Shown here piece after piece: positions 2,007-62,077 of a stretch of 64,000 nucleotides of DNA. Position numbers and translations under genes: made by a program. Origin of the DNA: Escherichia coli (GTDB taxonomy: Bacteria; Pseudomonadota; Gammaproteobacteria; Enterobacterales; Enterobacteriaceae). Where the stretch lies: the NCBI RefSeq assembly GCF_050920415.1, contig NZ_CP169309.1. One strand, written 5' to 3'. Under the pieces are notes generated by a model. The model did no database searches and was not told the DNA's origin. It saw only the letters and a program-made list of their open reading frames with translations. Position 1 is the first letter of the stretch, and every line of letters starts with the position of its first letter.

Positions 2007-2053
2007 TGGCCTCAAAGCAGCAAATTTCAACATCGTCCAACTGAGGTGTAAAA

Positions 2054-3694: not shown

Positions 3695-3709
3695 CTGATT
3701 GAATTGTAA

Positions 3710-21879: not shown

Positions 21880-22195
21880 AACAACTCCTTAAAAATTGCA
21901 CCCATGGCAATTGCACGAGCAGTGTTAATGTGGCGATTACGGTATCGATGGATGGTGACAAATAAGGTGATGAATATCACACGGAGATTATTAGCAAAAG
22001 AATTCAAATAACCGCCAGACTATTACGCGTTATTTTTTAATAAGCATAGTTGTTTTAAAAACCAGGTTAAAAGCGAGCGGATTATCAAATAAATTCTAAC
22101 TATATTTTTTTGCCTGTCTGGATCACATAATCCAGATATTTTCCCTGTATGTTAATTGCAGTCATGCTTCACACCGTCGTTAAAAAGGAAGACAG

Positions 22196-37220: not shown

Positions 37221-38330
<1,110 letters not shown>

Positions 38331-38364
38331 TGAGGGACACGGTGCCTGTTTCATAAAGATCATT

Positions 38365-38782
38365 TATACCCGTCATACTTCAAGTTGCATATGCGTTGGC
38401 AAGTTATTCAGGGATAGCCGGATGAGTGACATCACCATCCGGCTTAAGATTCCATACTATAATAATTCGAGTTGCAGGACAAAACGCCAGTGGCGTTTTG
38501 AACAACGCTTGCGTTGACCCTGAAAGGGTGAGGCCTAAGGCCGAGTAACGCGACAGGCGAGTGACAAATTCGTCGGGAACGAATTTGACCAGCCTCTGGC
38601 TGGCCTTCGGTGAAAGGCATCCTGCCTTTCAGTCATCCCCAGTCACTTACTGGGGTGAGCGACAAATCCGCATGGAGCGGATTTGAACGCTGCTTGCAGC
38701 GGTCCCGTAAGGGGTGAGGCCCATGGATGGGCCGAATAACTCGCAGACGCAGCACATGCAACTTGAAGTATGATGGGTATAT
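38365..38782. repeat. ERIC/IRU-like composite intergenic element bounded by 30-bp inverted repeats
   Basis: Left arm tatacccgtcatacttcaagttgcatatgc, right arm gcacatgcaacttgaagtatgatgggtata; interior contains the ERIC core-like agtcacttactggggtgagcg and internally repeated ggtgaggcc...ggccga segments. Confidence 0.5.
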
Positions 38783-38939
38783 ACACAATGAACTTCAAGA
38801 CACTTGCTTCGGTATCTGGAAATTATCATTAATTCTGGATGCGACCAGCCTTGCTATATCTGGCAATGTTTCTTCAAAAACGTCGATATTGTATCCCAGA
38901 AATCTCACACACTGCTGAACCGGCATGTTCATTAATTAT

Positions 38940-39342
38940 TTATCCAGGCCATTTGCAATCAGTACCATCACTATTATATGCCTCAATATTTTCTTCAAAC
39001 TCAGTTATTTTTCCACTTTTCGATTTATAGTAAGAGCTATTAAATCTTGCACCCTGCGTAGCAACAACATACAATCCGTTGACTTTACATCCTATAACCT
39101 CACTCCATGTATATGTAAACTCTGAAGGTCTATCATCGAAAGTCACTTCCAATTTTTTCGTAAATGCAAGAGGTATGAAATTTGAGGATATTCCATAAAC
39201 CACATAACCTAAAACAACATCACCAGAAGATACTTCAACAAATTTTAAATTTATCTTCCCGAAACTAAAACAGCCAACCGTAGTTTGTTATTTAGCAAAT
39301 AAGAAAAAGGGCATCAAACAAAAAATTAAAACAAATAATTTA
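38940..39342 (-). pseudogene. Frameshifted remnant of a small exported protein
   Basis: ATG at 39342 opens a signal-peptide-like frame (MKVKLFVLIFCLMPFSYLL...) that stops after about 32 codons; a different frame continues as the 87 aa ORF 38940-39203. Confidence 0.3.
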
Positions 39343-40268
39343 ACTTTCATATCATTTACTCCAATTCAGTTATTCGCCTCTGTACAAAAGCACACACAGA
39401 TTTTGAATTAATGGCGTACAAAAACATAATCGGATGAAAATACCACACCGGAATATTACTGATATAGCGGGATCTTACTCATTCGCTAGACTGAAAATGC
39501 AATTGAACAGAAATTTCTTACTAGTGTTTTTATCAGATGATCGGAAAGGAAATCAACTCACTGGCAAGTATCATAAGCTCAAATTGGCATATTGTATATT
39601 CCCATAAATACTTTTATTTTTTGATTAACATACTCAATACTACACATCACTAATTGAGAGAAGATTAACTTCATCATCTTTGATTAGGTACGTTTTTTAA
39701 TTTTCAATGACGCATCATAAAAAAGGGCTTACCAAGTTTAACACTAATAACAGGATATAAAGAAAACATATTGCTATATGAATCCTTTGGCGATGTTTTG
39801 GTTATGGTAATCTTTCCTTCTTTCAAGTGCTCTGCTATTATATGAAATTGAATCGGTCTTGTTGCATCACTTACCCGCAATGGATTACCAGCGTAAGCTT
39901 CATATCCTCCACCATTATTCATATGTAAAATAGTGTATTCGTCATTTAAAAATGACTGCTTACTATCGTAGACTTGGTAGTATATATTACTTATATCAAG
40001 ATAAATTACTATAGAGATATACTTAATTTTTCATTTAGCATTAATGATGTATCCATGGAATCTATACATCTTTCAATATCAGTTATTTTTTCTTCTATAT
40101 ACGTAGCATAATTTTTTGGCACTGGCGTGTTTAGCCCTCATATACCCTCATTAACTAAGACACCATTTTGCTTGCTTTTTACATTGTAATAAAGACAATC
40201 AATATTGAATTTATTATTTTTATATTTCAGTGTTGTATATACAGTAAAATCATGCAGCGAACGCCCAT

Positions 40269-40544
40269 CTAAAACAATTGCGGGCGTGTCAGAAAAAAGT
40301 CAAATGAATAAGATGGATTATTTTCATAATCAGTCATAAATTTCATCTTTCTTATTTCATGATCAACGATCGCATAGATCTCATGATTAGATTCATCATA
40401 TCCATAAATGATTTCACCACCAGTACTGGCAGTAGCAGTAGCACTACTACAAATCAACATAATTACAAGTACATATCTAGTCAAGTTGAAAATCCTTAGG
40501 GGCAGATGATGTTTTTTCCAAGATGGATTGAAATTTTTCAACAT
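40269..40544 (-). CDS. Small hypothetical protein, possible orphan exported protein
   Basis: 91 aa ORF in an AT-rich decayed region; internal hydrophobic stretch. Confidence 0.25.
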   Translation of the reverse strand: MLKNFNPSWKKHHLPLRIFNLTRYVLVIMLICSSATATASTGGEIIYGYDESNHEIYAIVDHEIRKMKFMTDYENNPSYSFDFFLTRPQLF

Positions 40545-40854
40545 AAGAATCCATTAATTGCTTCTGATATTTTTCATTAATTATTTTTCGCGTATTATTA
40601 TATTAAATTTTATCACTGTTAATATATGTGGGGATTTTTACTCGTAAAAATCCCCGCCTCAATTCCCCAAATCATAATTGATACAGGACACAACTCTAGC
40701 AATGGTATCGTGAATAGTTTTCTTTAATAAGGCACGTCTCAATTCTTGAACATAAATTCGAATTATTTAGTAAAAAAACATCATCCCTGGGAGTATTACC
40801 TATTTTTGTATAATGCTATATTTATAGTAAACAATTCACAAGAAAATATTATTA

Positions 40855-41826
40855 CTAATATTTATATTCCTCCCACTGAGCACCGTATCGATGCTTTAAC
40901 AGTTTAACTTTAATTTCATCATATGTTTTAACTTTACTACCATCAATCTTAAGGCGAATTTTATTCGAGGTGATATCAACATAATTTCTATTTTCCCCAC
41001 CCGCAGGGAAAAAATCAAACATAAAATTAGACATGTTTTGTTCTTTTTTCATGAGAGCTCCATACTCACACATGTCATTTATATTTTGTATGTATGGAGT
41101 GCCCCCCTGACATGATGGATAATGAAAATCAATTATAGTAAAAAGCGATTTATTGACACTCCTCTGAAAGAACCACTTATTATTTACAATACGATAGGTT
41201 AAAGATTTAAATGTATACCAGTGACTTCCTGGAAGAAAAGAGTAAGCTTCATTAAGATTGACAGTAAATACCTTAGTTTCTCCAGAGGAAAGCTTTACCC
41301 ATTCTGATTTTATATCACAATTATCGCCCATACCAAAATAAAGCTCATCATTGGCATCATCCTCAACAAAATCACATATATTGGTTGCGGAAGGACGGAA
41401 TTTCAGATAGAAACCACTTGTGGATATTAAAAAAGAATCCTCACATAAAGGAGAAAAAAAATAAGGCTCCGATGTGTGTGAGGAGATAGGTAATAATCGT
41501 CTATGAATGAAATTTTCGCTACCCCCCAAATTTGTAAAACTTATTTTTGCTAACACACGAGAGTCAATTTGCTTAACGGTTAATCTAACATCAACATCAA
41601 ACATATTACGATTTGGCAATTTTTCCTCGACTCCGTCAGTGTAATGTGATAACTCAAGTATATTGTCCTCAAGAGTCATCGAATTTAATTTTTGTTCGGA
41701 AACATATTGTGCAATAACCTCATCATTGCAGTATCCATGAAATGAAATAAACATTAGCACTGCAATCTTAACTAATCTCAAAATACTTTTCAATATTGTA
41801 TGCATTATTAAAAACCAGCGGGTCAT
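40855..41826 (-). CDS. Putative immunity protein 2 (exported), paralogue of the 43491-44312 gene
   Basis: 323 aa; N-terminal hydrophobic signal-like segment; conserved segments shared with 43491-44312 (FTN...S, FxPG..Y, F.KS..Y+.VN+KWF); directly downstream of the HExxH gene. Confidence 0.6.
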   Translation of the reverse strand: MTRWFLIMHTILKSILRLVKIAVLMFISFHGYCNDEVIAQYVSEQKLNSMTLEDNILELSHYTDGVEEKLPNRNMFDVDVRLTVKQIDSRVLAKISFTNLGGSENFIHRRLLPISSHTSEPYFFSPLCEDSFLISTSGFYLKFRPSATNICDFVEDDANDELYFGMGDNCDIKSEWVKLSSGETKVFTVNLNEAYSFLPGSHWYTFKSLTYRIVNNKWFFQRSVNKSLFTIIDFHYPSCQGGTPYIQNINDMCEYGALMKKEQNMSNFMFDFFPAGGENRNYVDITSNKIRLKIDGSKVKTYDEIKVKLLKHRYGAQWEEYKY

Positions 41827-42582
41827 GTTTTGATTTTAATTCTTTTGCATTGGCAATTTCTCTTTTTTTTCCCAAATCGTTACTGCTTAATCCACCATAA
41901 TACTGTTCTCCATCCCAGATAATAAAAAGGTGAGATAACTCATGGCATAATGTGGAGACTCGAGAGTTTTCTCCCGTTGGATTTTTACATGTGAAATTTT
42001 GTAAGATATCTATAGATATTCTTTCTCGATACTCTAACTTTAAAAGTTCAGCCTTCGACTTATTTTTATACTCACTACTTTGGTATTGGGGCCGATTTAG
42101 ATCTATATGAGTCGTCTGAGCAGCCGGTATACGGGCTGAACCATTGACTAAATTGGTATAATTTTTAAAATTGCCATATATTAGTTGTACATTATCTTGC
42201 GTTCGAGTTTCAATGATCAAGCTATCACAAATCATGATCATTCTGTAAACCCCCTCTTTTATAAAAGTATGTGCGTCAATATTCTTGGTTTGTGGAGTGA
42301 AGTTCCCATTATTATCTGACTTTTGACAAGGAGCATAGTGTTCCATTGTTATAATAGCATCACCTGGTAATCCAAATATATCTTCAAAATTTTTCTGATC
42401 TGCTGGTGTCCATGCTTCCAGATTTTTGCTCTGATATTCAATACTCGCTTTGTTTCTTCCAAAGCAGGCGTTATCATGTTGTAAAATTGATCAGTAACCT
42501 TTGCTTCTTTTTTACATATATTGCCTTTTTGAGTTACCCCTTGTGAACTTCCTTTGTTATTATTCATAAACACCTCCCTCAA
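41768..42582 (-). pseudogene. HExxH-motif putative type VI effector, copy 2, disrupted by a -1 frameshift in an A5 run
   Basis: Two ORFs (42349-42582 and 41768-42346) in different frames both align to the intact paralogue at 44336-45127; HELSH at 41930-41944; frames switch at the T5/A5 run 42423-42427. Confidence 0.7.
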
Positions 42583-42975
42583 TCATATCTATACTTTGAT
42601 GCAATAGCCTGACTTTTATCGTCAGCTCACTGTCAGTGATAAATATTTCCGTATACCCATCCTTATCCGTTTCCCCTCGCGCTTGTGTGCCGTCCTCAAA
42701 AAAGGCAATGTAGCGTGTTTCTGAATACGGTATCCCGTCATCGTCTGTAAAATGAAACTGGAGGGTGTATTTCTCAGGTTCATCCTTATCTTCATTGTCG
42801 TTCCCAGAATCATTTCCATCGCCACCACCGACCCCGCCATTGCCTTGCCCGCCCTCTGCACCACCATCTTTATCACTACCTTCATCCGTCAGTGCCTCCA
42901 GCACGCCCGGTTGCAGTGTCGGTACCGGAGTCCCCGGACTACCCCCACCATTCAGATTTATCTTCGGCCCCCAGG
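42560..42975 (-). pseudogene. Orphan 3' fragment of a vgrG gene (last 140 codons or so)
   Basis: Translation GPKINLNGGGSPGTPVPTLQP...DEPEKYTLQFHFTDDDGIPYSETRYIAFFEDGTQ matches the C-terminal region of the full vgrG at 45117-47522; DNA 42897-42970 matches 45463-45536; no upstream vgrG body. Confidence 0.75.
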
Positions 42976-43335
42976 GAAAGATTACGAAAGCCCGCTCCCC
43001 GCAAGGACTGACGCCAGATACTTTCTGTCCATGGCTGCTTTTCGCATCTTACGTCTTAACCCTGCCTTGAATACCTTATCATTCGTCAAAATATTAATAG
43101 CGATGTGCCGTATCCCTGAAAATAATTCTGCTGCATTTCCTCTTCTTATTTTGCAGTCGTCTTCATTCATTACCACGTCCAGACGCCAGTGCAGCTTATT
43201 CTCCACGTGCCCGTGGTTTCGGATTGCTGTGGCGAACTTCTCTGCGGTTAAATCAGCAGAACTGATATAATATCTGACCGTCATTTCTGGCTCTTTCTTT
43301 TGTTCTGCTATTATGGACCGAAAGGAGACTGCCAC
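42972..43335 (-). mobile_element. H-repeat (ISAs1-family) transposase 3' remnant
   Basis: 117 aa ORF ending ...[28 protein letters not shown], recognised as the C-terminus of H-rpt/ISAs1-type transposases; no N-terminal part present. Confidence 0.65.
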
Positions 43336-43490
43336 GCATAATTTCTTCAGCCCTTTCCATTCAAACGTGAAATCAATAAGTTCATCAGGGACATCGCAAA
43401 CAATATGAAGACGGATTTCTTCTCTGCCGTGACTAAAATGCGAATTATTTAGTACAAAAAAAGCGGCGCACCTTGTTCTTTCCCAGATTC

Positions 43491-44312
43491 CTAATATGGC
43501 AACTTTAAGTTATCGCCGTCTATACTTATAGAAATTTCATCAGGGGTGACGTAAATAGAATTTTTTTCATCCTCAATTGCCCATAACTGATTAATAAAAA
43601 AGTGTTTTTTTTCATCTAATAACAAATTATCACATGTAGTAAAATTATTAATATCAAAAAGATCATCAGCACAATTAATTTTTAAATTTAAAAAATAAAG
43701 AAAAATATTATTGATTGATTTGAGTGTAAACCACTTGTCATTAACAAATTTATAGCCAGATGATTTTATAAAATAATAATTATCTCCTGGTATAAAGGCA
43801 TACATATCATTTAAGGTTATACTCAACAAAAAACTACGACCTGGTTTAATAGTATTCCACCGTTCAGGATTCGTATTAATTTCAAAAGGACATGAACCAC
43901 CTAAGTAGTCCAACGTGATATTCCCAGAGTTGATTCTGAATGGTTTTTTGCATATTGCATCATATTCATCTCCTTTTCCATCTTTTACTTTCATAGGTAG
44001 ATAATATTTAGAAAAAAAATACGTGGTAGAGCTTTTGTTAGTAAAGGTTATGTTAGCAAAAATCCTGTTATTTTTTTTACTCATAGCTAATTGAGCATTG
44101 ACATCCGCTATATAATTTATATGATTACATTTTTTCTTACACTCATCATAATTTTCGATAGGATAAATTAATGGCCTTCCTTTGATATCTCTCTCAAGCC
44201 CAAACCCGTATTTTTTTATTAAAACCATTTCATCTGCAGTCGATTGAAAGGAATAGAAAAATATAATATTTACGATTGTCATTATTATGATTTTTTTTAT
44301 AGCTTGCAGCAT
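43491..44312 (-). CDS. Putative immunity protein 1 (exported)
   Basis: 273 aa, hydrophobic N-terminus ([16 protein letters not shown]); immediately downstream of the HExxH gene; paralogue of 40855-41826. Confidence 0.6.
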
Positions 44313-44335
44313 TAATATATTTCTCGACTTATTAG

Positions 44336-45127
44336 TTAATGGAGAAGTGCTTTTTCTAATTCCGCTATTTTTTTCTTAACTAAATTGCTTAATATTTCAT
44401 CATTAATCGAGTCTATCTCACTTTCAATTAATCTTATTTCAAAATATCTTTCTATGTTATATGCATTCTCAAATATTTGATCTTTTTGTTTAGAGATCAG
44501 TTTAGTTGCAATACGGATATGTTCGTCATATGAAACTTCATCCTCTTTGCACGTTGAATATTTATCAGTAGTTGTATAATCCTGTGACCACATACCACCT
44601 TTTTTATTATCCCTATAATACCACTGAATATGAGACATTTCATGACATAAAGTAGCAACATGAGAATCCTTTCCCGTTACTGGATTTTTTTTGCCATCTC
44701 TATACTCAAATTTTGCGCCTATGTTAATTATATAGGGCATATCCTTACTTGGGCTGACGAATGCTGCAAATTCATTACAACCTGTATAATTTATAAAACT
44801 GCTCATTGTTAAATCATTAGCTATAATCATTAATCTTCTCACACCATCCATCATAAGAAATCTAGCATTCATGCGCCTGCCTGTATTATGTCCATATTTT
44901 CTTATATTAACTTCCTTATTTCCTTTAACACCAAAGATCTTACTGAAATCATATTCCTCCTGTGCTCCCCATCTCAAAAGATCATCTGCTCTTTTTATCA
45001 AAACCAACTTTTGTGCCTTACGAGCCTTATCAATCATTATTTTAAAATGATCAGTTATTTTTTGCTCTTTCACACATTCTTCTGGCTCTGGCTTTGGTTG
45101 TCCAGAAGTTTGATTATTATCGTCCAT
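44336..45127 (-). CDS. HExxH-motif putative zinc-metallopeptidase-like type VI effector, copy 1 (intact)
   Basis: Start ATG 45127 with AAGGA RBS, overlapping the vgrG stop; HEMSH at 44630-44644 (catgaaatgtctcat on the sense strand); no signal peptide; low GC. Confidence 0.7.
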   Translation of the reverse strand: MDDNNQTSGQPKPEPEECVKEQKITDHFKIMIDKARKAQKLVLIKRADDLLRWGAQEEYDFSKIFGVKGNKEVNIRKYGHNTGRRMNARFLMMDGVRRLMIIANDLTMSSFINYTGCNEFAAFVSPSKDMPYIINIGAKFEYRDGKKNPVTGKDSHVATLCHEMSHIQWYYRDNKKGGMWSQDYTTTDKYSTCKEDEVSYDEHIRIATKLISKQKDQIFENAYNIERYFEIRLIESEIDSINDEILSNLVKKKIAELEKALLH

Positions 45128-47522
45128 AGTGTCCTTCCATTGAGAGAAAATCATCATTCGCAAATAGCAACTTCACTTTAATTTCATGTTTGCTAGATAC
45201 AAAAAAACGCTCTGTATACCCCTCTTCATCCGTTTCTCCGCGGGTCTGCGTGCCATCCTCAAAGAAGGCAATGTAGCGGGTTTCTGAATACGGTATCCCG
45301 TCATCGTCTGTAAAATGGAACTGGAGAGTATATTTTTCAGGTTCATCCTCATCGTCACCTCGATCATCACCACCACTTCCGGTCACGCAGTTCCCTCCAG
45401 AGTTTTCATTTTCTTCTCCGGAATCACTGCCATCACCACTCTTCTCATCCCCCAGTGTCTTCAGCACCGCCGGTTGCAGCGTCGGTACAGGCGTCCCCGG
45501 ACTGCCTCCCCCGTTCAGATTTATCTTCGGCCCCACTATATCCACGCCCCCTGAATGGATGACCACAAACGAGCCACCCAACTTCAGGCTTATCCGGCTG
45601 CTGCTCTCCAGCACGATATCCCCGTCCACCTTTATCCCCAGCGCACCACTCACCTTCCTCGCCAGGTCGCCTTTCACCTCCAGGCTGTGTTTTCCCTCCA
45701 CCAGGCTGATGTGGTTTCCTGTCGTTTTGTGCTCCTGCTTCCCTTCCACCGTCACCTTTCGGTCGTTTCTGACGTACAGACCGTCATCGTGGCTGACGTT
45801 CACCCGCCGGTCGTTCGTCACCTTCAGCGTCTGGTCGTTGCGCACCGTGATGCTCCGGTCATGGGCCACCGTGATACTCTGGTCGTGGCCCCCTTCTTTT
45901 CTGGTGCCGACCTCAACCGTCTGCCCCTTCACCACCCTTATCTTCTGGTCGTTACCGATGGTCTCCGTATGGTCATGCTTCACGTCCGTCGTCCGGTCGT
46001 TAAGCACCTCCGTGTCCATGTTCTTCTGCGCGTGGATATACACCTGCTCACTGTCCGTCGCATCCTCGAAACGCAGTTCATTAAAGCCGCTTCCTTTATA
46101 GGTCTTCGAGCGGATGGTCATCTGCGTCCGCGTGCCCGGTAAATCCCCCGGTGAACGGTTATCTTCATGGTAGGTCCGCCCCGTCACAATGGGCTGGTCC
46201 GGGTCTCCGTTCAGAAAGTCCACTATCACTTCCTGACCCACACGCGGTATCGCCAGATTGCCGAACCCCGGTCCCGCCCATGCCTGCGACACCCGTATCC
46301 AGCATGAACTCTCCTCCGTCATCCCGTGATAACGGTCCCAGTGAAACTTCACCCGTACCCGGCCATGCTCGTCGCAGAATATCTCCTCGCCCTTCGGCCC
46401 GGTCACGATGGCACTCTGCGGGCCGTCCACCTTCGGCTTCGGCAGCGGCGCGTGACGCCACGTCCTGTCTGCCGGTATCACCTCAAACTGGTTACTCAGC
46501 GTCGTCCCTTCACCGTGACTGCCGTGCAGCGCCTGCGGCTGTTCTCCCCGCAGTGTGCTTCCCACAACCTGCCATTCCCGGTTCAGCGTATCCGACGGGT
46601 GACCCGACAGGGTAAACCGCGTTCCCGGCCACAGCCGCGCCGTGTTACACACCCCGCTCGCCGTCTCCGCCCCGTTCCGCCACCCTTCCGTCTGGTAACG
46701 CGCAAAATCCTGGCCATGCTGCTCATCCTTGAAACGCCCCGGATAATCAAATATCTCGTACTGCGTTCCCTGCCCGTTCAGGCTCTCCCCGTCATGGCTG
46801 TAGTACCCCGGCCACCCCGGCACTTTAAACGTATAATCCTGCGTCTCCACCGACGCCACGCTTATCTGCGCACGGTAACGAAACTCACTGATGTACTCCG
46901 TCGTTCCCCCGGTCGTCGTGTTCGGGTTAAACGCCAGCGCCCCCATTCCCGTCAGCCCCGCCACGTCATCACACACCGCCAGCTTCTGTTCCGGCCCGTC
47001 CTGACTGCAGCGTTCATAAAAGAAGATACCTTCCTCCGCCCACAGCCGGGTCAGGAACGCCAGGTCGCTCTCCCCGTACTGCACGCAGAACTCCCGCGCC
47101 GGATGGTCTTCATAAAACAGCGGCATCCACGCCGTCACCCCGTTCTCTCTCAGAAGCTGTGCTGATATCGTCCCGATGTCCTGCTGCTGGAAGATACGGA
47201 AGTTCTGCCGTAACCCTGCCCGCCACAGCGGCGGGCTGATGCTCAGGGAATAACGCATCTGCCAGTCGTTGTTCTCACCGAGCTGCACCTCCGTCACGAT
47301 ACCGCTGACGTAACGCTGTGCAGTGTCGCCCTGCCAGACCGTCAGCACCGCGCTTTTCTCCAGAAAATCCTCCGCCGTCAGGTCGGACAGCCCGCTGGCG
47401 ATATCCACATCCAGGATGAACGGTGTGCAGTGGTGCTGGTACAGACGGAAGCTCACCACCGCCGTCGCCATCTCCACGATGTCGTCCACCGACAGCGTGA
47501 AACGTAATCCTTCTGAGGACAT
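45117..47522 (-). CDS. vgrG: Type VI secretion spike protein VgrG with acidic Gly/Asp-rich linker and C-terminal extension domain
   Basis: 801 aa from MSSEGLRFTLSVDD; gp27-like N-terminal region, gp5-like repeats (VKHDHTETIGNDQKIRV...), then GGGSPGTPVPT, acidic linker and a C-terminal domain of about 60 aa. Confidence 0.9.
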   Translation of the reverse strand: MSSEGLRFTLSVDDIVEMATAVVSFRLYQHHCTPFILDVDIASGLSDLTAEDFLEKSAVLTVWQGDTAQRYVSGIVTEVQLGENNDWQMRYSLSISPPLWRAGLRQNFRIFQQQDIGTISAQLLRENGVTAWMPLFYEDHPAREFCVQYGESDLAFLTRLWAEEGIFFYERCSQDGPEQKLAVCDDVAGLTGMGALAFNPNTTTGGTTEYISEFRYRAQISVASVETQDYTFKVPGWPGYYSHDGESLNGQGTQYEIFDYPGRFKDEQHGQDFARYQTEGWRNGAETASGVCNTARLWPGTRFTLSGHPSDTLNREWQVVGSTLRGEQPQALHGSHGEGTTLSNQFEVIPADRTWRHAPLPKPKVDGPQSAIVTGPKGEEIFCDEHGRVRVKFHWDRYHGMTEESSCWIRVSQAWAGPGFGNLAIPRVGQEVIVDFLNGDPDQPIVTGRTYHEDNRSPGDLPGTRTQMTIRSKTYKGSGFNELRFEDATDSEQVYIHAQKNMDTEVLNDRTTDVKHDHTETIGNDQKIRVVKGQTVEVGTRKEGGHDQSITVAHDRSITVRNDQTLKVTNDRRVNVSHDDGLYVRNDRKVTVEGKQEHKTTGNHISLVEGKHSLEVKGDLARKVSGALGIKVDGDIVLESSSRISLKLGGSFVVIHSGGVDIVGPKINLNGGGSPGTPVPTLQPAVLKTLGDEKSGDGSDSGEENENSGGNCVTGSGGDDRGDDEDEPEKYTLQFHFTDDDGIPYSETRYIAFFEDGTQTRGETDEEGYTERFFVSSKHEIKVKLLFANDDFLSMEGHYGR

Positions 47523-47813
47523 ATAAACCCCATAGCTACCGCACTCATGGTGCAAACCCTACAGAATTATAAGAAAGACTTAAGTGAGATATCCGTCAGA
47601 TAGCAACTATTAGGAAAATATTTATATACATTTCATGAATACATTCATTAATACCGAGATGTTTTTGTCTATATAAACAGAGCAAGCTAACGTCCTCACT
47701 CCATGAAAGAAACTACGTAGGGGCCTTTCGGTCCATAACAACTTTTTCCCTGTTATATCCTGACGTTCTGGTCTACTGGTGTAGTCATGCATATTGCAAC
47801 GTTCTACCCATGG

Positions 47814-47900
47814 AAAGATAAATAAAGCCAGCTCTCCGCAAGGACTGAAGCGAGGTGCTTTCTGTCCATAGCTGCTTTTCGCAACTTACTCCTTAACCCA
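47814..47900 (-). mobile_element. Short H-repeat (ISAs1-family) 3' remnant, direct repeat of 42972-43060
   Basis: ctctccgcaaggactgaagcgaggtgctttctgtccatagctgcttttcgcaacttactccttaaccc aligns with the 3' end of the 42972-43335 remnant; encodes ...[19 protein letters not shown]. Confidence 0.55.
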
Positions 47901-48055
47901 ACACTGAATTTCTTATGATTTGTCACAGTATGAACTTTTAATTTCATACATTGCTCTTTAGTCAATAGAAGAAAAATAAGCACCCTCTCCCAAACGACAC
48001 AAATAACCTGCAAATGGGAAATGACTTATTACTTAGAAATTTGCAGAGATATAAA

Positions 48056-48337
48056 TCACGAGATATATCCACCTTTTGAGTTAACAGTTACAGACGTTAT
48101 AACATTATCTTTTATCCAGATATCAACAAAAAAGTCCTTACCACAATAAAGACATTCACAATATCCTTCAGAGATAAAGTTGTCCTTAAGTTTATTTCTG
48201 GTTATATTAATAAGTTTATCGCCAGGATTGTAATGTACTAAATTTCCAGATGGCACAAACATCTCAATTTCACACTGTCCTGACGTTCCACATCGAGGGC
48301 AAACGCACCATGCTTTCAATAAATCATAATTCGACAT
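48056..48337 (-). CDS. Small Cys-rich hypothetical protein (possible zinc ribbon)
   Basis: 93 aa with CPRCG and CECLYCG; AAGGT RBS upstream of the ATG at 48337; AT-rich. Confidence 0.5.
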   Translation of the reverse strand: MSNYDLLKAWCVCPRCGTSGQCEIEMFVPSGNLVHYNPGDKLINITRNKLKDNFISEGYCECLYCGKDFFVDIWIKDNVITSVTVNSKGGYIS

Positions 48338-48387
48338 TATATTACCTTAATTTATTTCACATCAGCATCCCCCCTTGCAAACCACAA

Positions 48388-48744
48388 CTAAACTATTCCC
48401 ATAAAATACAACGAGATAATTTTACTGTTAAACGTACATTCACAAAACTCAGGGGAAGAAAAATGACCATCAGTCAAAAATAAAGATAGTTTGCTTAGTG
48501 CGTAATCAATTGAATCAAGCGACAAGTATAATTTTATTACTAGTGAGTTCTGTATCAGGACATCATTTTCATTGGGGGATTGTAAAAGTAATAAATTTTT
48601 ATACGCTACAGGTGATCTGTTTTCCAGTCTAATAGGTTTGCTTGCTTCCGTCTCCAATAAACTATAAAGAGCACAAACCATCTCATGAGCATCATCTTTC
48701 TCAAAATGTAAATGAAACCCGCCCAGAGATTTATTAGCAATCAT
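48388..48744 (-). CDS. Hypothetical protein
   Basis: 118 aa ORF, weak RBS, AT-rich accessory context. Confidence 0.4.
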   Translation of the reverse strand: MIANKSLGGFHLHFEKDDAHEMVCALYSLLETEASKPIRLENRSPVAYKNLLLLQSPNENDVLIQNSLVIKLYLSLDSIDYALSKLSLFLTDGHFSSPEFCECTFNSKIISLYFMGIV

Positions 48745-48841
48745 AATACGTTTCTAAAGTTGATTTGAAATTTTGCATTTCATGCTCATCAAAAAAATAA
48801 ATATATTTTAACTACAAAGCAAACATCACAGCGCATAGCGG

Positions 48842-49057
48842 TTAATATTCTACCTTAACGACTTTCATTCCTCTTTCAATCATACCATTAATTAATTGAT
48901 AATACTCTTTATCCCCTACATCTACTATTAGAATATGTCCGGTAAGTTCATTGATGAATAAATACTCAGGTTCCTCATCTGTACCAGCATTTGAAATAAC
49001 CCAACCTGGATCAGTACCATCTATAAAAAACTCCCACTCTTTAAAATTAACACTCAT
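48842..49057 (-). CDS. Small acidic hypothetical protein (candidate orphan immunity protein)
   Basis: 71 aa; strong AAGGAGG RBS 6 nt upstream of the ATG. Confidence 0.5.
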   Translation of the reverse strand: MSVNFKEWEFFIDGTDPGWVISNAGTDEEPEYLFINELTGHILIVDVGDKEYYQLINGMIERGMKVVKVEY

Positions 49058-49169
49058 TTAATCCTCCTTTTTATACTCGCAAGAAAAGGAGAGTATCGTT
49101 TCTAACTCTGAAATAAAAGTATGATAAAAGACAGGACCTGGCCTCATTGAATGTTATTTCTCAATTCTT

Positions 49170-49275
49170 GATAGTTTTTGCCGGATGCGGCTTGAACGCT
49201 TATCTGGCCTACACAATCTTGCAAAATCAATATATTGCACGCTCTTCGTAGACCAGATAAGCGTAGCGCATCAGG
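49170..49275. repeat. REP-type palindromic repeat
   Basis: gccggatgcggc...gcttatctggcctac and its partner gtagaccagataagcgtagcgcatcaggc in inverted orientation. Confidence 0.5.
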
Positions 49276-49292
49276 CAATCTAACACCTGTCA

Positions 49293-51707
49293 TCACCCCG
49301 CAAACTGCCTGAACAGCGCCTTACCCTTAACCAGTCGCGCACCCAACCAGCCGCCGAAAAGCGACAGCAGCAGTGCACCGCTACAAGGCAGAACAATCCA
49401 CAATCGCCAGTCTGGCTCCCACGGGAAATCAAACACTTTTGATTGCAGTACCGCCAGTGCCGTTTCCGCACCAATTGCGGCCACCAGGCCGGAGACAAAC
49501 CCGAGCATGGCGAACTCACACCACAATGTCGTGCGCAGCAGTTTTTTGCCCGCACCGAGAGTGCGCCACACCACCAGCTCCTGATGACGCTGACGCATTC
49601 CCACCTGCACCTGTGCCAGCAACAGCAACATACCGCAGGCGGTGACCAGCACCACCATCACTTCCAGCGCCCGACTTACCTGCTCCAGCACCTGACCGAC
49701 CTGTTTTAAAATCGCGCCAATGTCTAACAGGCTAATGGTCGGGAACTGGCGGTTGAGTTGCGTCAACATGCCGTTGCCATTCTCCCAGCGGAAACTGGTA
49801 AGCCAGCTCTGCGGTTGCCCGTCTAATGCCCCTTCCGGGAAAATAAAATAGAAATTAGGCCGCAGACTTTCCCAGTCCACTTTGCGCAGGCTGGTCACTT
49901 TAGCGCGGAACTCCTGGGTATCGCCCATAAAGGTGACGGTATCGCCGAGGGTAACATTTAAGCGTTTCGCCAGCCCCTCTTCCATCGATACTTCATCGGC
50001 TTTTGGCGGCCAGTTACCAGCGACAATCGGATTATGATCGGGCCGCGTATTTTGCCAGGTGAGATTGAGTTCGCGGTTGAGCGCCTCATCTTCATTGCCT
50101 TCTGTCGGCTTGCCGTTAATCGCCGTCAGCCGCGCCCGCACCACCGGATAAAACGATTCCGGGACTATCTGATGTTCCGCGAGGAACGCTTTTAGCGGAG
50201 TAACCTGTTCTGTGGCGATGTTGATTAAAAAGTAGTTAGGACTTTCTGGCGGTAGCTGCTGTTGCCAGCGATCGAGCAGATCGCCACGCAACACCAGCAA
50301 CAGTGCCAGCAGCATAAAGGAGAGCGAAAATGCCGAAAGCTGGCTTAACGTTGACCACGGCTGACGTAACAGGCGGCTAACCGCCAGGCGCAGAGGCAGC
50401 GATTTCAGCGTCATGCGGCGAAGTACATTCAGCAGCATCCAGCCCAGGACACCGCACAGCAAAGCTAGTACTATCGCGCCCGCCAGCACCGCCCAGAGCA
50501 GCATACTGCCGCCCATCAGTCCGGCGAGCAGCAGCACAACCACCACACTGACAATCGGCAGATAAAACTTGAGCGGCCAGACGTTCGCTACCACATCATT
50601 ACGTAATACGCGTAAAGGCTGCGTTGCCAGCAACAAGCGGTACGGTCGTAGCCCCACCAGCAGCGAGATGACCGTCATGGTGCCAAGCGCCCACAGCCAT
50701 GGCCAGAGGCTGGCAGGCGGTAGTGCGGCAGGCAGAACGGGCTTGAGCAGTACCATCAACACGTTTTCGAACAACAGGCCTATCGCCCCGCCGGTAACGG
50801 CTGAAAGCGCCAGCACCATCAGCCACTGACCGACGATTAGCTTACGCAGTTGCGCTCGCCCAGCCCCCAGCGTTTTGAGGATCGCCACCAGATCGTAGCG
50901 ACTACGACAGTAATGATTCATCGCCACCGCCACCGCTGCCACTGCCAGCAGCAAGGTCAGAAGCGCCGAAAGCAGCAGAAACTGTTGCGAGCGTTCCATC
51001 GATCGCCCCAGCGCGCCTTCGTCCTGTTCCAGACCGTACCAGCGTTGTTCGGGTTTAAGCTGGGGTAACAACCATTTCTCATAGCCGTCGAGCTGGTTCT
51101 CGCTGCCGCCGAATTTATAGCGCCAGGTGACCCGACTCCCCGGCTGCACGGCTCCGGTTTTATCGACATCCGCCAGATTCATCATCAGACGCGGAGCCAT
51201 CTGGAAGGGGTTAAAACCGGAATCCGGTTCCTGAATCACTTCTCCGGCAATCCGCAAGGTGGCATCGCCCACGTCAATGGTGTCGCCTGTTTTCAGGTTA
51301 AGCAGTGCCATCAGGCGTGGGGCCAGCAATACGCTGCCCGCCTGCGGTTTCAGGCCAGGGGGATTGGTTTGCAGATCGCCATACATCGGGTAGATATCAT
51401 CCACCGCTTTAACATTCGCCAGCTGCGGCGTATCGCCCGCAAAAGTCATCGTGGCGAAAGTCAGCTGCTTGCCGACTTTCAGGCCGCGCTTTTGCGCTTC
51501 CTCCAGCCACGCTTGCGGCACTTCGCGTGAACTGCGCAACGCCCGATCGCCCGCCATAAACTCACGGCTTTGCTGGCTTAAGCCCTTCTCCATGCGATCG
51601 CTGATATTGCCCAGCGCCAGCACGCAGGCCACCGCCAGGCTTAGCGCCAGCCAGACAATTAATAGCGACGGCGAGCGCCATTCGCGCCAGAACCAACGTG
51701 CAATCAT
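49293..51707 (-). CDS. ybbP: ABC transporter permease (FtsX-like, duplicated)
   Basis: ORF 49293-51755; start at MIARWFWREW gives 804 aa and a 4-nt overlap with the ybbA stop. Confidence 0.9.
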   Translation of the reverse strand: MIARWFWREWRSPSLLIVWLALSLAVACVLALGNISDRMEKGLSQQSREFMAGDRALRSSREVPQAWLEEAQKRGLKVGKQLTFATMTFAGDTPQLANVKAVDDIYPMYGDLQTNPPGLKPQAGSVLLAPRLMALLNLKTGDTIDVGDATLRIAGEVIQEPDSGFNPFQMAPRLMMNLADVDKTGAVQPGSRVTWRYKFGGSENQLDGYEKWLLPQLKPEQRWYGLEQDEGALGRSMERSQQFLLLSALLTLLLAVAAVAVAMNHYCRSRYDLVAILKTLGAGRAQLRKLIVGQWLMVLALSAVTGGAIGLLFENVLMVLLKPVLPAALPPASLWPWLWALGTMTVISLLVGLRPYRLLLATQPLRVLRNDVVANVWPLKFYLPIVSVVVVLLLAGLMGGSMLLWAVLAGAIVLALLCGVLGWMLLNVLRRMTLKSLPLRLAVSRLLRQPWSTLSQLSAFSLSFMLLALLLVLRGDLLDRWQQQLPPESPNYFLINIATEQVTPLKAFLAEHQIVPESFYPVVRARLTAINGKPTEGNEDEALNRELNLTWQNTRPDHNPIVAGNWPPKADEVSMEEGLAKRLNVTLGDTVTFMGDTQEFRAKVTSLRKVDWESLRPNFYFIFPEGALDGQPQSWLTSFRWENGNGMLTQLNRQFPTISLLDIGAILKQVGQVLEQVSRALEVMVVLVTACGMLLLLAQVQVGMRQRHQELVVWRTLGAGKKLLRTTLWCEFAMLGFVSGLVAAIGAETALAVLQSKVFDFPWEPDWRLWIVLPCSGALLLSLFGGWLGARLVKGKALFRQFAG

Positions 51708-52390
51708 GCTTCCTCCTGCAACTGCCCGTTCACCAGCCGTAAGCAGCGGTCGCAACGTGCCGCCAGTTGAAGGTCGTGGGTCACCATAATCAACGTGGTG
51801 CCATGTTCACGGTTGAGAGAAAACAGCAGGTCGGCAATTTTATCGCCTGTCTGGCGGTCAAGGTTGCCGGTGGGTTCGTCGGCAAACAGCACATCAGGCC
51901 GACCGTTAAAGGCACGCGCCAGCGCCACTCGTTGCTGTTCGCCGCCGGAAAGCTGTGCCGGAAGATGATCAAGACGTTTACCCAGCCCTAACTGTTCGAG
52001 CAACGCTTTCGCCCCATTACGACTTTCCACGCTACTCTCACCGCGCAGCAGCGCCGGAAGCTCGACGTTTTCCAGCGCGTTAAGGGTAGGAATTAACATA
52101 AATGACTGAAAAACAAAGCCTACGTGCTTCGCGCGCAACTTTGCCCGCGCTTCTTCGTCCATATTATGTAGCGGTTGTCCCACCAGATTTACTTCGCCAC
52201 TGCTGCCGTCATCCAGTCCGGCGAGGATCGCCAGCAACGTTGACTTACCCGATCCCGACTCGCCTACCAGCGCGATGGTCTCGCCACGTTTGACAACCAG
52301 CTCAACTCCGGTGAGGATGGAGAGTTCATGCTCCCCCTGACCGACGGACTTCTTAAGATGATGAACTTCAACAATGTTTTCCGCTGGCAT
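51704..52390 (-). CDS. ybbA: ABC transporter ATP-binding protein
   Basis: 228 aa with Walker A GESGSGKST and signature LSGGEQQR. Confidence 0.9.
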   Translation of the reverse strand: MPAENIVEVHHLKKSVGQGEHELSILTGVELVVKRGETIALVGESGSGKSTLLAILAGLDDGSSGEVNLVGQPLHNMDEEARAKLRAKHVGFVFQSFMLIPTLNALENVELPALLRGESSVESRNGAKALLEQLGLGKRLDHLPAQLSGGEQQRVALARAFNGRPDVLFADEPTGNLDRQTGDKIADLLFSLNREHGTTLIMVTHDLQLAARCDRCLRLVNGQLQEEA

Positions 52391-58296: not shown

Positions 58297-58661
58297 TTAA
58301 TTTTCCTGCCTGGCGTAAACCTCTTAAAAATTGAGATTTATCAAAGAAACGCATTTTAGCACACATCAGGAACTGCTTCACGTTTAGTCCAGAAACAGAA
58401 TTTATTTCGCTTATCAAAACAAGTCTTTACTCTTTTTTACATTGAAAGAGCACGAAATGATTTCCTTTTTTATTTATATGAGAAACCATTTTTGTTTCTT
58501 ATTGATGGCGTTTACGCTTACACCAGACAAAAATGCGCTTTACATCACACAAATGGCGGCGTAGATTTCGATTAAATTGCAACGTAGTTTATTTCTTAAA
58601 ACAATATTATTTGTTTCTTATAGAAACATTAATGCGACTTATTTTGAACAAGAGAAAATGA

Positions 58662-59678
58662 ATGAAAACTGTAAACGTAGCTTTACTGGCACTCATAATT
58701 TCAGCAACATCCAGCCCTATTGTTTTAGCTGGTGATACCATTGAAGCGGCGGCAACAGAGCTTTCAGCCATTAACTCTGGCATGTCGCAATCGGAGATTG
58801 AGCAGAAGATTACCCGCTTTTTAGAACGCACCGACAACAGCCCCGCTGCATATACCTATTTGACTGAACATCACTACATCCCTTCTGAAACACCTGATAC
58901 CACTCTGACTCCCCCTGTCCAGACAGATCCTGACGCAGGACAAAAAACCGTTGCCGCTACAGGTGATGTACAGACAACCGCCCGTTATCAGAGCATGATC
59001 AACGCCCGACAGTCTGCGGTAACTGATGCCCAGCAAACGCAAATTACAGAGCAACAGGCGCAGATCGTAGCCACACAAAAAACGCTCGCCGCGACTGGAG
59101 ATACGCAAAATACCGCGCATTATCAGGAGATGATTAATGCCAGGCTGGCGGCTCAAAATGAGGCTAATCAGCGCACTACCACTGAACAAGGGCAGAAAAT
59201 GAATGCGCTGACAACCGATGTGGCAGCACAACAGCAATATGAAAGGACTCAATACGATAAACAAATGCAAAGTCTGGCGCAGAAGTCTGTCCAGGCACAT
59301 GAGCAAATTGAAAGTCTGAGACAAGATTCCGCACAAACGCAGCAACAGTTAACCAACACCCAAAACCGGGTCGCTGATAACAGCCAGCAAATTAACACGC
59401 TCAATAACCATTTCGATTCGCTGAAAAACGAAGTTGAGGACAATCGTAAAGAAGCCAATGCGGGAACTGCATCTGCCATCGCTATCGCCTCACAACCACA
59501 GGTGAAAACCGGTGACTTGATGATGGTGTCAGCGGGAGCGGGAACGTTCAACGGTGAATCTGCGGTGTCTGTAGGAACATCTTTTAATGCCGGAACGCAT
59601 ACGGTACTTAAAGCAGGTATTTCTGCGGATACACAATCTGATTTCGGTACGGGTGTCGGCGTGGGATATTCGTTCTAA
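58662..59678 (+). CDS. Small trimeric-autotransporter-like protein (signal peptide, Q-rich coiled-coil stalk, YadA-type C-terminal anchor)
   Basis: Signal peptide MKTVNVALLALIISATSSPIVLA; internal tandem motif KT(V/L)AATGD.Q.TA.YQ.MINAR twice; C-terminus ...EANAGTASAIAIASQPQ...MVSAGAGTF.GESAVSVGTSF...GVGVGYSF matches the YadA anchor pattern. Confidence 0.7.
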   Translation: MKTVNVALLALIISATSSPIVLAGDTIEAAATELSAINSGMSQSEIEQKITRFLERTDNSPAAYTYLTEHHYIPSETPDTTLTPPVQTDPDAGQKTVAATGDVQTTARYQSMINARQSAVTDAQQTQITEQQAQIVATQKTLAATGDTQNTAHYQEMINARLAAQNEANQRTTTEQGQKMNALTTDVAAQQQYERTQYDKQMQSLAQKSVQAHEQIESLRQDSAQTQQQLTNTQNRVADNSQQINTLNNHFDSLKNEVEDNRKEANAGTASAIAIASQPQVKTGDLMMVSAGAGTFNGESAVSVGTSFNAGTHTVLKAGISADTQSDFGTGVGVGYSF

Positions 59679-59731
59679 TTTTAACAGCAATTTCTTATTC
59701 GCAATTTTCCGTACATTATTTAAGGTTAACA

Positions 59732-60154
59732 ATGATGAATAGCTCCATTAAATCGTTTTCCCTGCTGGCGGTTATATTACTGGCTGGCTGTAGTTCACCC
59801 ACTTCCCGCATCGCAGATTGCCAGGCGCAGGGCGTCAGTCATGATACCTGTTATCTCGCAGAACAACAGCGTCAGACGGCTATTTTAAGTGCATCCGAGG
59901 CGCAGGCATTTAAAAATGCAGAAGCCGCACAACATGCCCAGGCGGCAAAGAAAGCCATTTATAAAGGATTTGGCATGACCTTTAGAATGAGCAGTAAGAA
60001 CTTTGCTTATCTCAATGATTCATTATGTGCAATTGATGAAGACAATAAAGATGCCACTGTTTATCAGTCAGGTCTTTATAACGTCATTGTTTATCACCAC
60101 ACGGGAAAAGTCGCCTTAATGAAGGAAGGTCAGTTTGTGGGTTATTTAAAATGA
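59732..60154 (+). CDS. Lipoprotein, 140 aa
   Basis: Signal peptide with lipobox LLAGC; AAGG RBS. Confidence 0.65.
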   Translation: MMNSSIKSFSLLAVILLAGCSSPTSRIADCQAQGVSHDTCYLAEQQRQTAILSASEAQAFKNAEAAQHAQAAKKAIYKGFGMTFRMSSKNFAYLNDSLCAIDEDNKDATVYQSGLYNVIVYHHTGKVALMKEGQFVGYLK

Positions 60155-60357
60155 AGGAGCAAAGGAAAATCCCCCTGACGCATATTATGATTATCGGTGC
60201 GTTTATTTTTGCCTTCTTACAAGTGGTGTTATTAGCCTCCCTGGTTCACGCTGTGAATGTTAACAACGAAATCCAGGAAGGCTTATTTCAGTCGGGGCGC
60301 ATTATGGTAGAAAGTTTGCAGCATATTCTGTCTGTGCAACCGGTGATTAACGGGTAA
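60151..60357 (+). CDS. Small membrane protein, 68 aa
   Basis: ATGA overlap with the lipoprotein gene; single hydrophobic helix IMIIGAFIFAFLQVVLLASLV. Confidence 0.45.
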   Translation: MKEQRKIPLTHIMIIGAFIFAFLQVVLLASLVHAVNVNNEIQEGLFQSGRIMVESLQHILSVQPVING

Positions 60358-60445
60358 GAGCACCGCTTCCATTTATAGAGCAATAGTCACCAGCGTAATT
60401 TTCTGGCACAGTTCAGGGAACTGAAATTTTGGCTAAGGAGTGGCC

Positions 60446-61669: not shown

Positions 61670-62077
61670 TCACCCCGCTCGATGATGACAGCAGCCGGAG
61701 AGATTTTCGATAATTGGGCAGTCGGCGCTGTCATCACCGGGGCAGGCATTCGCCAGCGCCAGTAGCTGGTCGCGCATGGATTGCAGCTCCTCAATGTGCC
61801 GTTCGATCTCCGCTACCTTCTCCAGCGTACGACGTTTGACGTCGGCACTGTGACGCTGCGGATCGTTAAACAGATTCACCAGTTCGCCGCTCTCTTCCAG
61901 GTTAAAGCCCACCTGGCGCGCCTGGCGCAGTAAGGTCAGTTCGTTGAGATGCTGCTGCGTGTAGGTTCGATAACCATTTTCGCTGCGCATCGGCGGCGTC
62001 ACTAGCCCCTTTTCTTCATAGAAGCGAATGGCTTTGCTGGTCAGGCCGGTAATTTTTGCTACATCGCTAATGTTCAT
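61670..62077 (-). CDS. cueR: MerR-family copper-responsive regulator
   Basis: 135 aa starting [26 protein letters not shown] and ending CCHHRAG, recognised CueR sequence. Confidence 0.95.

Follow-up and report, generated by a model that had tools for sequence, protein, structure and literature searches.

The stretch of DNA analyzed here comprises 64,000 nucleotides (nt) of an Escherichia coli chromosome (contig NZ_CP169309.1, referred to as the window in the following) and is oriented in reverse to K-12. Between selU and ybbP it harbors an 11-kb insert (38331-49292), in which every gene lies on the minus strand and which carries vgrG, the spike gene of type VI secretion systems (T6SS), together with two modules of effector and immunity genes. 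In K-12 MG1655 the same locus is occupied in the order ybbP-rhsD-ybbC-ylbH-ybbD-ylbI-ylbG-selU, and this gene order confirmed the assignment of the site to the K-12 RhsD locus, which had been made in a first-pass annotation from the sequence alone. The sole residue of the RhsD element in the window is a stretch of 39 nt adjoining selU. Along the direction of transcription, the insert consists of three small open reading frames (ORFs), an ISAs1 remnant, vgrG, the effector gene Eff1 and the immunity gene Imm1, followed by a second ISAs1 fragment, a vgrG 3' fragment, the effector gene Eff2, the immunity gene Imm2, and a 2.5-kb low-GC tail. The GC content of the vgrG core is 59-63%, whereas that of the effector and immunity genes is 26-35%. 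The first-pass annotation had given the span of the island as 42560-48013; the gene positions within this span were correct, but it omits the second effector and immunity genes at 40855-42567, and the two ISAs1-family remnants that bound module 1 (42971-43443 and 47804-48013) had not been mentioned. The main features of the locus are as follows:

49293-51755, minus strand: ybbP
47804-48013, minus strand: 3'-end remnant of an ISAs1-family element (H-repeat), seen as a direct repeat with the other ISAs1 end
45117-47522, minus strand: vgrG/tssI, full-length, 801 amino acids (aa), recognized by TIGR03361, TIGR01646, and Pfam
45117-45449, minus strand: part of vgrG coding for the C-terminal extension, with an acidic Gly/Asp-rich linker and a putative all-beta TTR-like domain of ~70 aa with a variable tail
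44336-45127, minus strand: Eff1, predicted M35/aspzincin-fold metallopeptidase effector of 263 aa with the motif HEMSH, the start of which overlaps the vgrG stop by 11 nt
43491-44312, minus strand: Imm1, predicted cognate immunity protein of 273 aa with an N-terminal signal-like hydrophobic segment
42971-43443, minus strand: 3' fragment of an ISAs1-family transposase gene, part of module 1 (NF033564, E 2e-27)
42560-42971, minus strand: vgrG 3' fragment of 412 nt with an open 114-aa ORF, recognized from repeats and sequence
41768-42567, minus strand: Eff2, paralogous predicted M35-family effector with the motif HELSH, frameshifted here
40855-41826, minus strand: Imm2, intact immunity homologue of 316-323 aa with an N-terminal hydrophobic segment, recognized by similarity to Imm1
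37236-38330, plus strand: selU/mnmH

The 801-aa product of the full-length vgrG scores 588.7 bits against TIGR03361 (cut-off 186.35) and 427.7 bits against TIGR01646 (cut-off 121.8). Pfam recognizes Phage_GPD (1.7e-75), Phage_base_V, and two copies of Gp5_trimer_C, and the VgrG1 structures of Pseudomonas aeruginosa in PDB are matched with an E-value of 1e-91. ORF and domains thus agree with the first-pass annotation, which had proposed a full-length vgrG with a C-terminal extension and had named a failure to match VgrG profiles as the outcome that would speak against it. A search of the C-terminus for DUF2345, which had been suggested there, gave no match; neither DUF2345 (PF10106) nor T6SS_Vgr was detected in the 801-aa protein by Pfam at E <= 10. 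By their variable C-terminal tails, VgrG proteins could be told apart into the types HQSIDMIEGGVYE and FANDDFLSMEGHYGR as well as a third type, NDYYIFEVNCNEHQ.

The closest genome to the window is that of the sister strain MFDS1022581, which is 99.997% and 99.98% identical to it outside the island. The 5' part of vgrG, about 2 kb in length, shows 94-97% DNA identity to the vgrGs from the T6SS-1 main cluster of this strain. In a comparison with enteroaggregative E. coli (EAEC) 042 by 100-nt sliding windows, the identity of vgrG is mostly 53-97% upstream of ~45450 and 99-100% downstream of it. Since the identity to 042 jumps at ~45450, while the core instead matches the main-cluster vgrGs of MFDS1022581, the gene is a chimera, with 5' ~2 kb that are main-cluster-like and a last portion of ~330 nt that derives from module 1. 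The junction of this chimera coincides with a conserved segment coding for GPKINLNGGG, which is the same point at which the downstream vgrG fragment (the stump) begins. Within the core, 26 substitutions relative to the otherwise near-identical MFDS1022581 sequence are clustered at 45669-45864. As the best match of this patch (96%) is a different vgrG of the MFDS1022581 main T6SS cluster, it seems to have arisen by recent gene conversion from one vgrG paralogue to another. The patch and one missing base at ~42427 are the only two differences to MFDS1022581 in the interior of the island.

Eff1 directly adjoins vgrG and is followed by Imm1, the product of which has a signal-like N-terminus, as was stated in the first-pass annotation, where an HExxH protein and then a signal-peptide protein had been described after vgrG. 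All three genes are intact in the window, and their frames overlap or are closely spaced. Read from the sequence, the N-termini of Imm1 and Imm2 both consist of a basic residue followed by a hydrophobic stretch, which is signal-peptide-like. An alignment of 19 homologues of the effectors revealed that the H, E, and H of the HExxH motif, one downstream Asp, and a C-terminal NAYNIERYF are invariant, whereby the Asp (D183 of Eff1) lies 17 residues past the second His in Eff1 and nine residues past it in short members of the family. Because phmmer searches with Eff1 and Imm1 against PDB sequences gave no useful match, the placement of Eff1 needed a family profile and a predicted structure. With the profile built from the 19-homologue alignment, two M35 peptidases in PDB were matched, AsaP1 (E 5.7e-6) and GfMEP (E 1.4e-3), and the predicted structure of Eff1 displays the aspzincin fold. 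The Pfam family Aspzincin_M35 (PF14521) has a precomputed match on some short family members, and the NCBI pipeline labels these effectors as “M35 family metalloendopeptidase.” These data provide evidence that Eff1 and Eff2 can be predicted to be metallopeptidases of the M35/aspzincin type. An exhaustive search with the effector-family profile among 1.84 billion representative proteins yielded 25 proteins at E <= 1e-30 and 257 at E <= 1e-3. The named close homologues are all from Enterobacterales, namely E. coli, Salmonella, Buttiauxella, Franconibacter, Rahnella, Enterobacter, Phytobacter, and Citrobacter.

Eff1 is 99.2% and Imm1 98.9% identical to the respective EAEC 042 homologue, and in 100-nt windows the DNA identity amounts to 99-100% from ~45450 through Eff1 and Imm1 and to 93-97% in the ISAs1 remnant down to 42971. 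Because of the sharp switch to ~99% identity at ~45450 and the low GC content of the effector and immunity genes as compared with the vgrG core, module 1 appears to be horizontally acquired and to have a separate origin. Eff1 and Imm1 occur in 508 of 5426 complete E. coli genomes (at least 80% coverage and at least 97% identity), including EAEC 042, PAR, NC101, and ATCC 11775. In the loci that were inspected (042 and PAR), they are part of a PAAR-vgrG-M35-immunity-ISAs1 remnant island located between yncG and yddH, which corresponds to the K-12 RhsE locus. The comparison of the ybbP-selU locus across E. coli, which the first-pass annotation had proposed, showed that module 2 together with both island flanks is present in three of the 5426 genomes (MFDS1022581, N96, and RMDEC465), likewise the whole island, and that rhsD is the occupant in K-12. 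Imm1 alone is found as an orphan gene in ~130 E. coli genomes. At the RhsE locus of HM670, a PAAR-vgrG-short M35 (200 aa)-immunity unit, whose VgrG has the tail NDYYIFEVNCNEHQ, is followed by an orphan Imm1 and an ISAs1 remnant; HM670 shows the same displacement process at another hotspot. Lesions were also encountered in relatives of the window, with a frameshift in the vgrG of N96, a split vgrG in one further assembly, and an Eff1 that two assemblies carry in split or truncated form. Such lesions and the orphan Imm1 genes are the behavior expected of a polymorphic toxin locus under module turnover.

The downstream unit had been described as a second, decayed copy of the same module. Its parts were found as stated, i.e., a vgrG 3' fragment, a frameshifted HExxH gene, and an intact immunity gene, but the decay amounts to one 1-nt deletion that is private to the window sequence. 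Relative to N96 and MFDS1022581, a single G is missing at ~42427, by which Eff2 is split, whereas the gene is intact in the sister genomes, with a product of 266 aa, and in many further assemblies; this lesion could be genuine or could stem from an error in sequencing. To call the modules duplicated is misleading, since they are old paralogues with 29% identity between Eff1 and Eff2 and 23% identity between Imm1 and Imm2 (E 1e-21), and module 1, being ~99% like EAEC 042, seems to be imported. The vgrG stump starts at the GPKINLNGGG segment and codes for the linker and the putative TTR-like domain with the tail type “HQSIDMIEGGVYE”; in relatives, its ORF is annotated as a 114-aa protein. It shows 86-87% DNA identity to positions 45211-45534 of the full gene, and its product is 88% identical to the C-terminus of an MFDS1022581 main-cluster VgrG. 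Within the assembly collection, 136 blocks contain the exact intact Eff2 protein. Of the 24 contigs that were read, eight Eff2 places were listed, all of them with the same ybbP...selU layout, and none of these eight has a full-length vgrG directly upstream of Eff2. Relatives of Eff2 with 56-66% identity are present in other E. coli, Phytobacter, Enterobacter, and Salmonella. Eff2-type effectors at 60-66% identity follow full-length vgrGs in Enterobacter soli and other E. coli, the E. soli example being an hcp-vgrG-M35-immunity arrangement that adjoins tssBCE, and the VgrGs ahead of these relatives share the tail HQSIDMIEGGVYE with the stump. Because Eff2 relatives follow full-length vgrGs with the same tail, the stump can be regarded as the remnant of a once complete carrier gene. 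The unit shows what would be looked for in a displaced array, namely a carrier 3' fragment followed by a divergent toxin-immunity pair with an intact immunity gene, and the earlier description of a new module upstream and a displaced module with its intact immunity gene downstream was thus confirmed for the layout.

The borders of module 1 are marked by insertion sequence (IS) ends. Upstream of vgrG, at a distance of ~280 nt, there is an ISAs1 terminus with the sequence “...tctttccatgg” (~47807), and the ISAs1 ends at 47807-47934 and 42970-43097 form a direct repeat with 80% identity. The ISAs1 fragment past Imm1 ends with “...tctttccctgg,” which is followed at once by “gggccgaagataaatctgaat...” of the vgrG stump. 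The same truncated ISAs1 copy is present downstream of the immunity gene in EAEC 042, where unrelated DNA follows the same IS end. The vgrG stump abuts the IS end, and there is no plain homology junction.

Regarding the apparatus, a tblastn analysis of the window with 21 T6SS proteins (Hcp, TssA-C, E-H, J-M, TagH, VasI, PAAR, and several effectors) gave no real match outside vgrG, the sole match being an overlap of 23 aa with the vgrG start, which is in accordance with the first-pass statement that the window holds no other T6SS core genes. The flanks consist of K-12-like sfm fimbrial genes, allantoin genes, ybbA, and tesA through cueR. The genome of MFDS1022581 contains a complete T6SS-1 cluster ~430 kb away, with hcp, tssB, C, E, F, G, tagH, tssJ, K, L, H, vasI, tssA, and tssM as well as several PAAR-vgrG-effector units with Tae4, M23, and Tle1 effectors. 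The first vgrG of this cluster is followed by a third M35-family effector of 307 aa with the motif HEVSH, and the immunity homologue behind it is cut by IS2. These findings support strongly, if indirectly, that T6SS-1 serves the orphan spike. The idea that the VgrG tail alone sets the identity of the effector was weakened, as the same tail precedes Eff2-type and 307-aa effectors, which are 28% identical. Further rearrangements were seen in the MFDS1022581 main T6SS cluster, where one vgrG is split by IS21 and ISAs1 remnants lie at the cluster end. Moreover, the start of the gene for an M23 “DD-metalloendopeptidase” in MFDS1022581 (4098000-4147999, positions 21952-22020) repeats the 5' end of vgrG over 69 nt, with 94% identity to window positions 47455-47523, which constitutes another recombination scar.

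Overall, we consider it likely, with good confidence, that the insert is an auxiliary (orphan) T6SS vgrG island at the ybbP-selU hotspot, which carries M35 effector/immunity modules and in which the older module has been displaced. The intact VgrG would then become part of the spike in a T6SS-1 apparatus whose genes lie elsewhere on the chromosome, whereby its putative C-terminal TTR-like domain and variable tail would hold Eff1. Eff1 would be injected into neighboring bacteria as a zinc metallopeptidase that is toxic in the periplasm, and Imm1, exported by means of its signal peptide, would shield the producer and its kin. By analogy to a characterized member of the family (see below), it is well founded to assume that the toxicity of Eff1 is neutralized by the immunity protein. 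The downstream unit would be the older of the two, a resident module from the same effector/immunity family, while module 1, comprising the vgrG 3' end, Eff1, Imm1, and the truncated ISAs1, would stem from the type of island that EAEC 042 carries at its RhsE locus. One crossover would have taken place in the conserved vgrG core and the other one in or beside an ISAs1 element that interrupted the resident vgrG at the GPKINLN segment. The simplest history would thus be that an ISAs1 element hit the resident vgrG, followed by recombination with a 042-type island, on the left side in the vgrG core and on the right side in the IS. What is left of the resident module is the vgrG 3' stump, Eff2, which is knocked out here, and the intact Imm2, which might still guard against relatives that fire Eff2-type toxins.

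Other histories of the locus can be considered. The ~90-nt “GPKINLNGGG...” segment of vgrG flanks module 1 as direct repeats (45445-45534 and 42882-42971, 86% identical), and the switch to ~99% EAEC 042 identity occurs at the same place, both of which would agree with a single-crossover (Campbell-type) insertion or unequal crossing-over at this segment in which the IS has no role. However, the second copy of the segment begins exactly at the IS terminus, and, because unrelated DNA follows the IS remnant in EAEC 042, the known donor type is without the repeat that would be needed on the right side, so that we regard this course of events as possible but unlikely. Far less probable still is a local tandem duplication in place, after which the downstream copy would have diverged and decayed. 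Such a duplication could account for the same gene order and orientation of both units and for the 86-87% DNA identity of the vgrG 3' fragment to the 3' end of the full gene. It does not fit, because the divergence of the effectors and immunity proteins (29% and 23% identity, respectively) contrasts with the identity of the adjacent vgrG segment. Moreover, hundreds of strains possess, at another locus, a module to which module 1 is ~99% identical, the nearest relatives of Eff2 (56-66%) are from the other E. coli, Phytobacter, Enterobacter, and Salmonella, and the IS remnant that was imported with module 1 sits between the two units.

Several points weigh against the reading as an active orphan island with a displaced module. 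With respect to the history, the recombination events were put in order by inference, and an undisturbed vgrG-Eff2-Imm2 arrangement at ybbP-selU was not found among the contigs read. With respect to the effector family, the M35 motif GTxDxxYG around the third zinc ligand is not conserved in the 19 homologues, and Eff1 alone matches PF14521 below significance (i-Evalue 0.0049, residues 125-180). With respect to firing, the T6SS core cluster was seen in the sister genome MFDS1022581 and not in the window's own genome. The island contains no PAAR gene, whereas EAEC 042 and PAR carry one upstream of the homologous vgrG, and no promoter was identified upstream of vgrG, where the count of promoter-like sites (42 versus 32 expected) has little discriminating power. 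In addition, because one or the other island gene is often broken in relatives, the recurrent breakage suggests weak selection on firing. It might thus be that the island is an inert relic that is no longer fired and in which only the immunity genes matter, as a protection against Eff1- or Eff2-armed neighbors. The lack of a PAAR gene and of a recognizable promoter, the IS remnant just upstream of vgrG, and the orphan Imm1 genes that are common in E. coli speak for this, as do the lesions in vgrG, Eff1, or Eff2 that recur in relatives, in which both immunity genes are usually kept. Yet vgrG, Eff1, and Imm1 are intact in the window with overlapping or close frames, the sister genome has PAAR genes and a compatible apparatus, and gene-conversion patches keep the vgrG core close to the main-cluster copies; we therefore hold an inert relic to be rather improbable. 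As to the descent of the spike itself, Phage_GPD, Phage_base_V, and gp5 domains are common to VgrG and phage baseplate hubs, which would be compatible with a remnant of a phage tail or another contractile injection system instead of a T6SS. Given the 588.7 bits on the T6SS-specific TIGR03361, the 94-97% DNA identity to vgrGs within a T6SS-1 cluster, and the absence of phage genes from the island, this has a practically negligible probability. The alternative named in the first-pass annotation, a genome without apparatus and a phage-tail-derived module, was accordingly not upheld, T6SS-1 being present in the closest genome MFDS1022581, the flanks of which are 99.997% identical.

Within the reading as an orphan T6SS island, it is also conceivable that the displaced Eff2 is a reserve weapon that is still usable via a main-cluster VgrG. 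Most of the genomes with the island have an intact Eff2, ahead of which lies the open 114-aa ORF that codes for no more than the linker and the putative TTR-like domain. Loading of Eff2 onto the main-cluster spike would be possible because the VgrG of the T6SS-1 main cluster in the same genome has the tail HQSIDMIEGGVYE like the lost carrier of Eff2. We consider this improbable. If it were true, Eff2 would be transcribed by read-through and loaded, or it would be revived by one recombination event, and the VgrG tail types would represent effector-loading compatibility groups across loci.

The remaining parts of the insert are three small ORFs beyond vgrG and the tail next to selU:

48842-49057, minus strand: ORF of 71 aa, the first after ybbP, annotated as hypothetical in N96, RMDEC465, and MFDS1022581
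48388-48744, minus strand: hypothetical ORF of 118 aa
48056-48337, minus strand: hypothetical ORF of 93 aa with two CxxC pairs, a gene call in several assemblies
38331-40854, no strand assigned: low-GC tail, 29-33% GC over most of its length, with short ORFs only and no recognizable function

The flank with the 71-aa ORF (48842-49057) is present in three of the 5426 complete genomes, and the ORF is island-specific. No NCBIfam, PADLOC, or Pfam match was obtained for the three small ORFs (48056-49057), and a Pfam query in which six small island ORFs were concatenated returned linker artefacts only. NCBIfam has no family for the effectors, the immunity proteins, or the small ORFs. Among the island proteins no PADLOC defence model was matched, Rfam gave no match on the island, and no additional effector- or immunity-family remnants emerged from tblastn of the island flanks. 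In the low-GC tail, the short ORF at 40269-40544 has a hydrophobic N-terminus. MFDS1022581 carries an IS2 at the site equivalent to 39594-39599 of the tail, which is absent from the window. Just past selU there is an inverted repeat of 30 nt with 93% complementarity, whose arms (38365-38394 and 38752-38781) are 357 nt apart, and the region 38649-38782 is a dispersed repeat, often multicopy, that occurs in nearly all E. coli genomes and has no Rfam match. Outside the insert, collinearity with MFDS1022581 is lost at positions 1-3707, to the left of tRNA-Arg(tct) (3710-3786); at this tRNA site that strain has nfrA-ybcH-envY, and the window carries different DNA. The allD gene (ureidoglycolate dehydrogenase) has an internal stop in MFDS1022581, which matches the split ORFs at ~22469-23245 of the window. 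The region ~58600-63971 comprises, between ybbJ and cueR, an islet that holds hypothetical genes and the gene of a YadA C-terminal-domain protein and, past cueR, an HlyD-family adaptor and a type I secretion ABC transporter, according to the annotation of MFDS1022581.

In general, vgrG islands with cargo effectors are established in E. coli (review PMC6730261). For the island described here no paper was found in the literature, nor was there anything specific on aspzincin or “peptidase M35” together with T6SS or on ybbP together with vgrG. Its value is that of a readable example of toxin swapping in the E. coli T6SS. The unit of exchange would be the terminal ~400 nt of vgrG, which code for the linker, the putative TTR-like domain, and the tail, plus effector, immunity gene, and IS remnant, whereby one of the recombination sites lies in the conserved vgrG core and old modules are shifted downstream. 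The classical Rhs hotspots RhsD and RhsE double as landing sites for vgrG cassettes. Particular to the present case are the landing site at the RhsD hotspot, the displaced module that includes the carrier 3' end, the IS-marked junction, and the coexistence of three paralogous M35 modules in one lineage. The current understanding is not changed by this; what is added is a documented case and the idea of a matching between VgrG tail and effector.

The best characterized relative of the effectors is M35-PAR (AKO63_2955) from E. coli PAR, which killed E. coli when expressed from pET22b, whereby the downstream gene AKO63_2956 blocked the killing (PMC10673891, Commun Biol 2023). M35-PAR corresponds to the homologue P0023, the N- and C-termini of which are matched by the MSNDRGSS... 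and ...ERYFEID encoded in the published cloning primers. P0023 shows 30% identity to Eff1 and 35% to Eff2, the product of the gene directly downstream (308 aa) shares 31% identity with Imm1 (E 3e-22) and with Imm2 (E 1e-29), and here, too, the effector gene lies directly behind vgrG. In contrast to Eff1 and Eff2, which are located in an orphan island, P0023 is part of a T6SS main cluster with the order hcp-clpV-vgrG-M35-immunity-tssM-tssA. Its VgrG has T6SS_Vgr and DUF2345, and M35-PAR bound VgrG only through a C-terminal (DUF2345) piece (PMC10673891), whereas the VgrGs of Eff1 and Eff2 are of the T6SS-1 type with a putative TTR-like end and without DUF2345 match. Because P0023 sits behind a DUF2345-type VgrG, one effector/immunity family is carried on two kinds of VgrG, namely T6SS-1-type VgrGs and the DUF2345-type VgrG of a differently organized main cluster. 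A further antibacterial metallopeptidase toxin delivered on VgrG is P. aeruginosa VgrG2b (PA0262, immunity PA0261), the toxin domain of which is termed M35; truncations assign the toxicity to this domain (PMC10673891). In EAEC VgrG1 (PDB 6sjl), a C-terminal TTR domain binds the Tle1 phospholipase. The window VgrG differs from it in having no DUF2345 segment, the sequence match is confined to residues 51-505, and the cargo of VgrG1 is a lipase, whereas the predicted cargo here is a metallopeptidase.

With the EAEC 042-type RhsE island, the window has ~99% DNA identity over a segment that starts ~330 nt before the vgrG end and extends to the ISAs1 remnant. The 042-type island occupies the other hotspot, has a PAAR gene upstream and no displaced module downstream, and the 5' two-thirds of its vgrG are another allele (82% aa identity overall). 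With respect to the turnover of modules, the classical parallel are the orphan toxin-immunity arrays of Rhs and contact-dependent inhibition (CDI) systems (Poole et al., 2011, PMC3150448). The first-pass annotation had seen the Rhs/CDI-like pattern here with vgrG as the carrier; the layout holds, but this pattern is already published for vgrG-3 of Vibrio cholerae, where vgrG-linked effector-immunity modules were displaced sequentially and the immunity genes retained (Kirchberger et al., 2017, PMC5361080). As in V. cholerae, the new module would have entered by recombination within the carrier's conserved 5' part, with the old module pushed downstream and its immunity gene kept. In contrast to V. 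cholerae, Rhs, and CDI, the toxin is here a separate cargo gene instead of the carrier's C-terminus, the displaced unit retains an adaptor-like carrier 3' end with a toxin that is intact in most carrier genomes, and an IS terminus lies at the junction.

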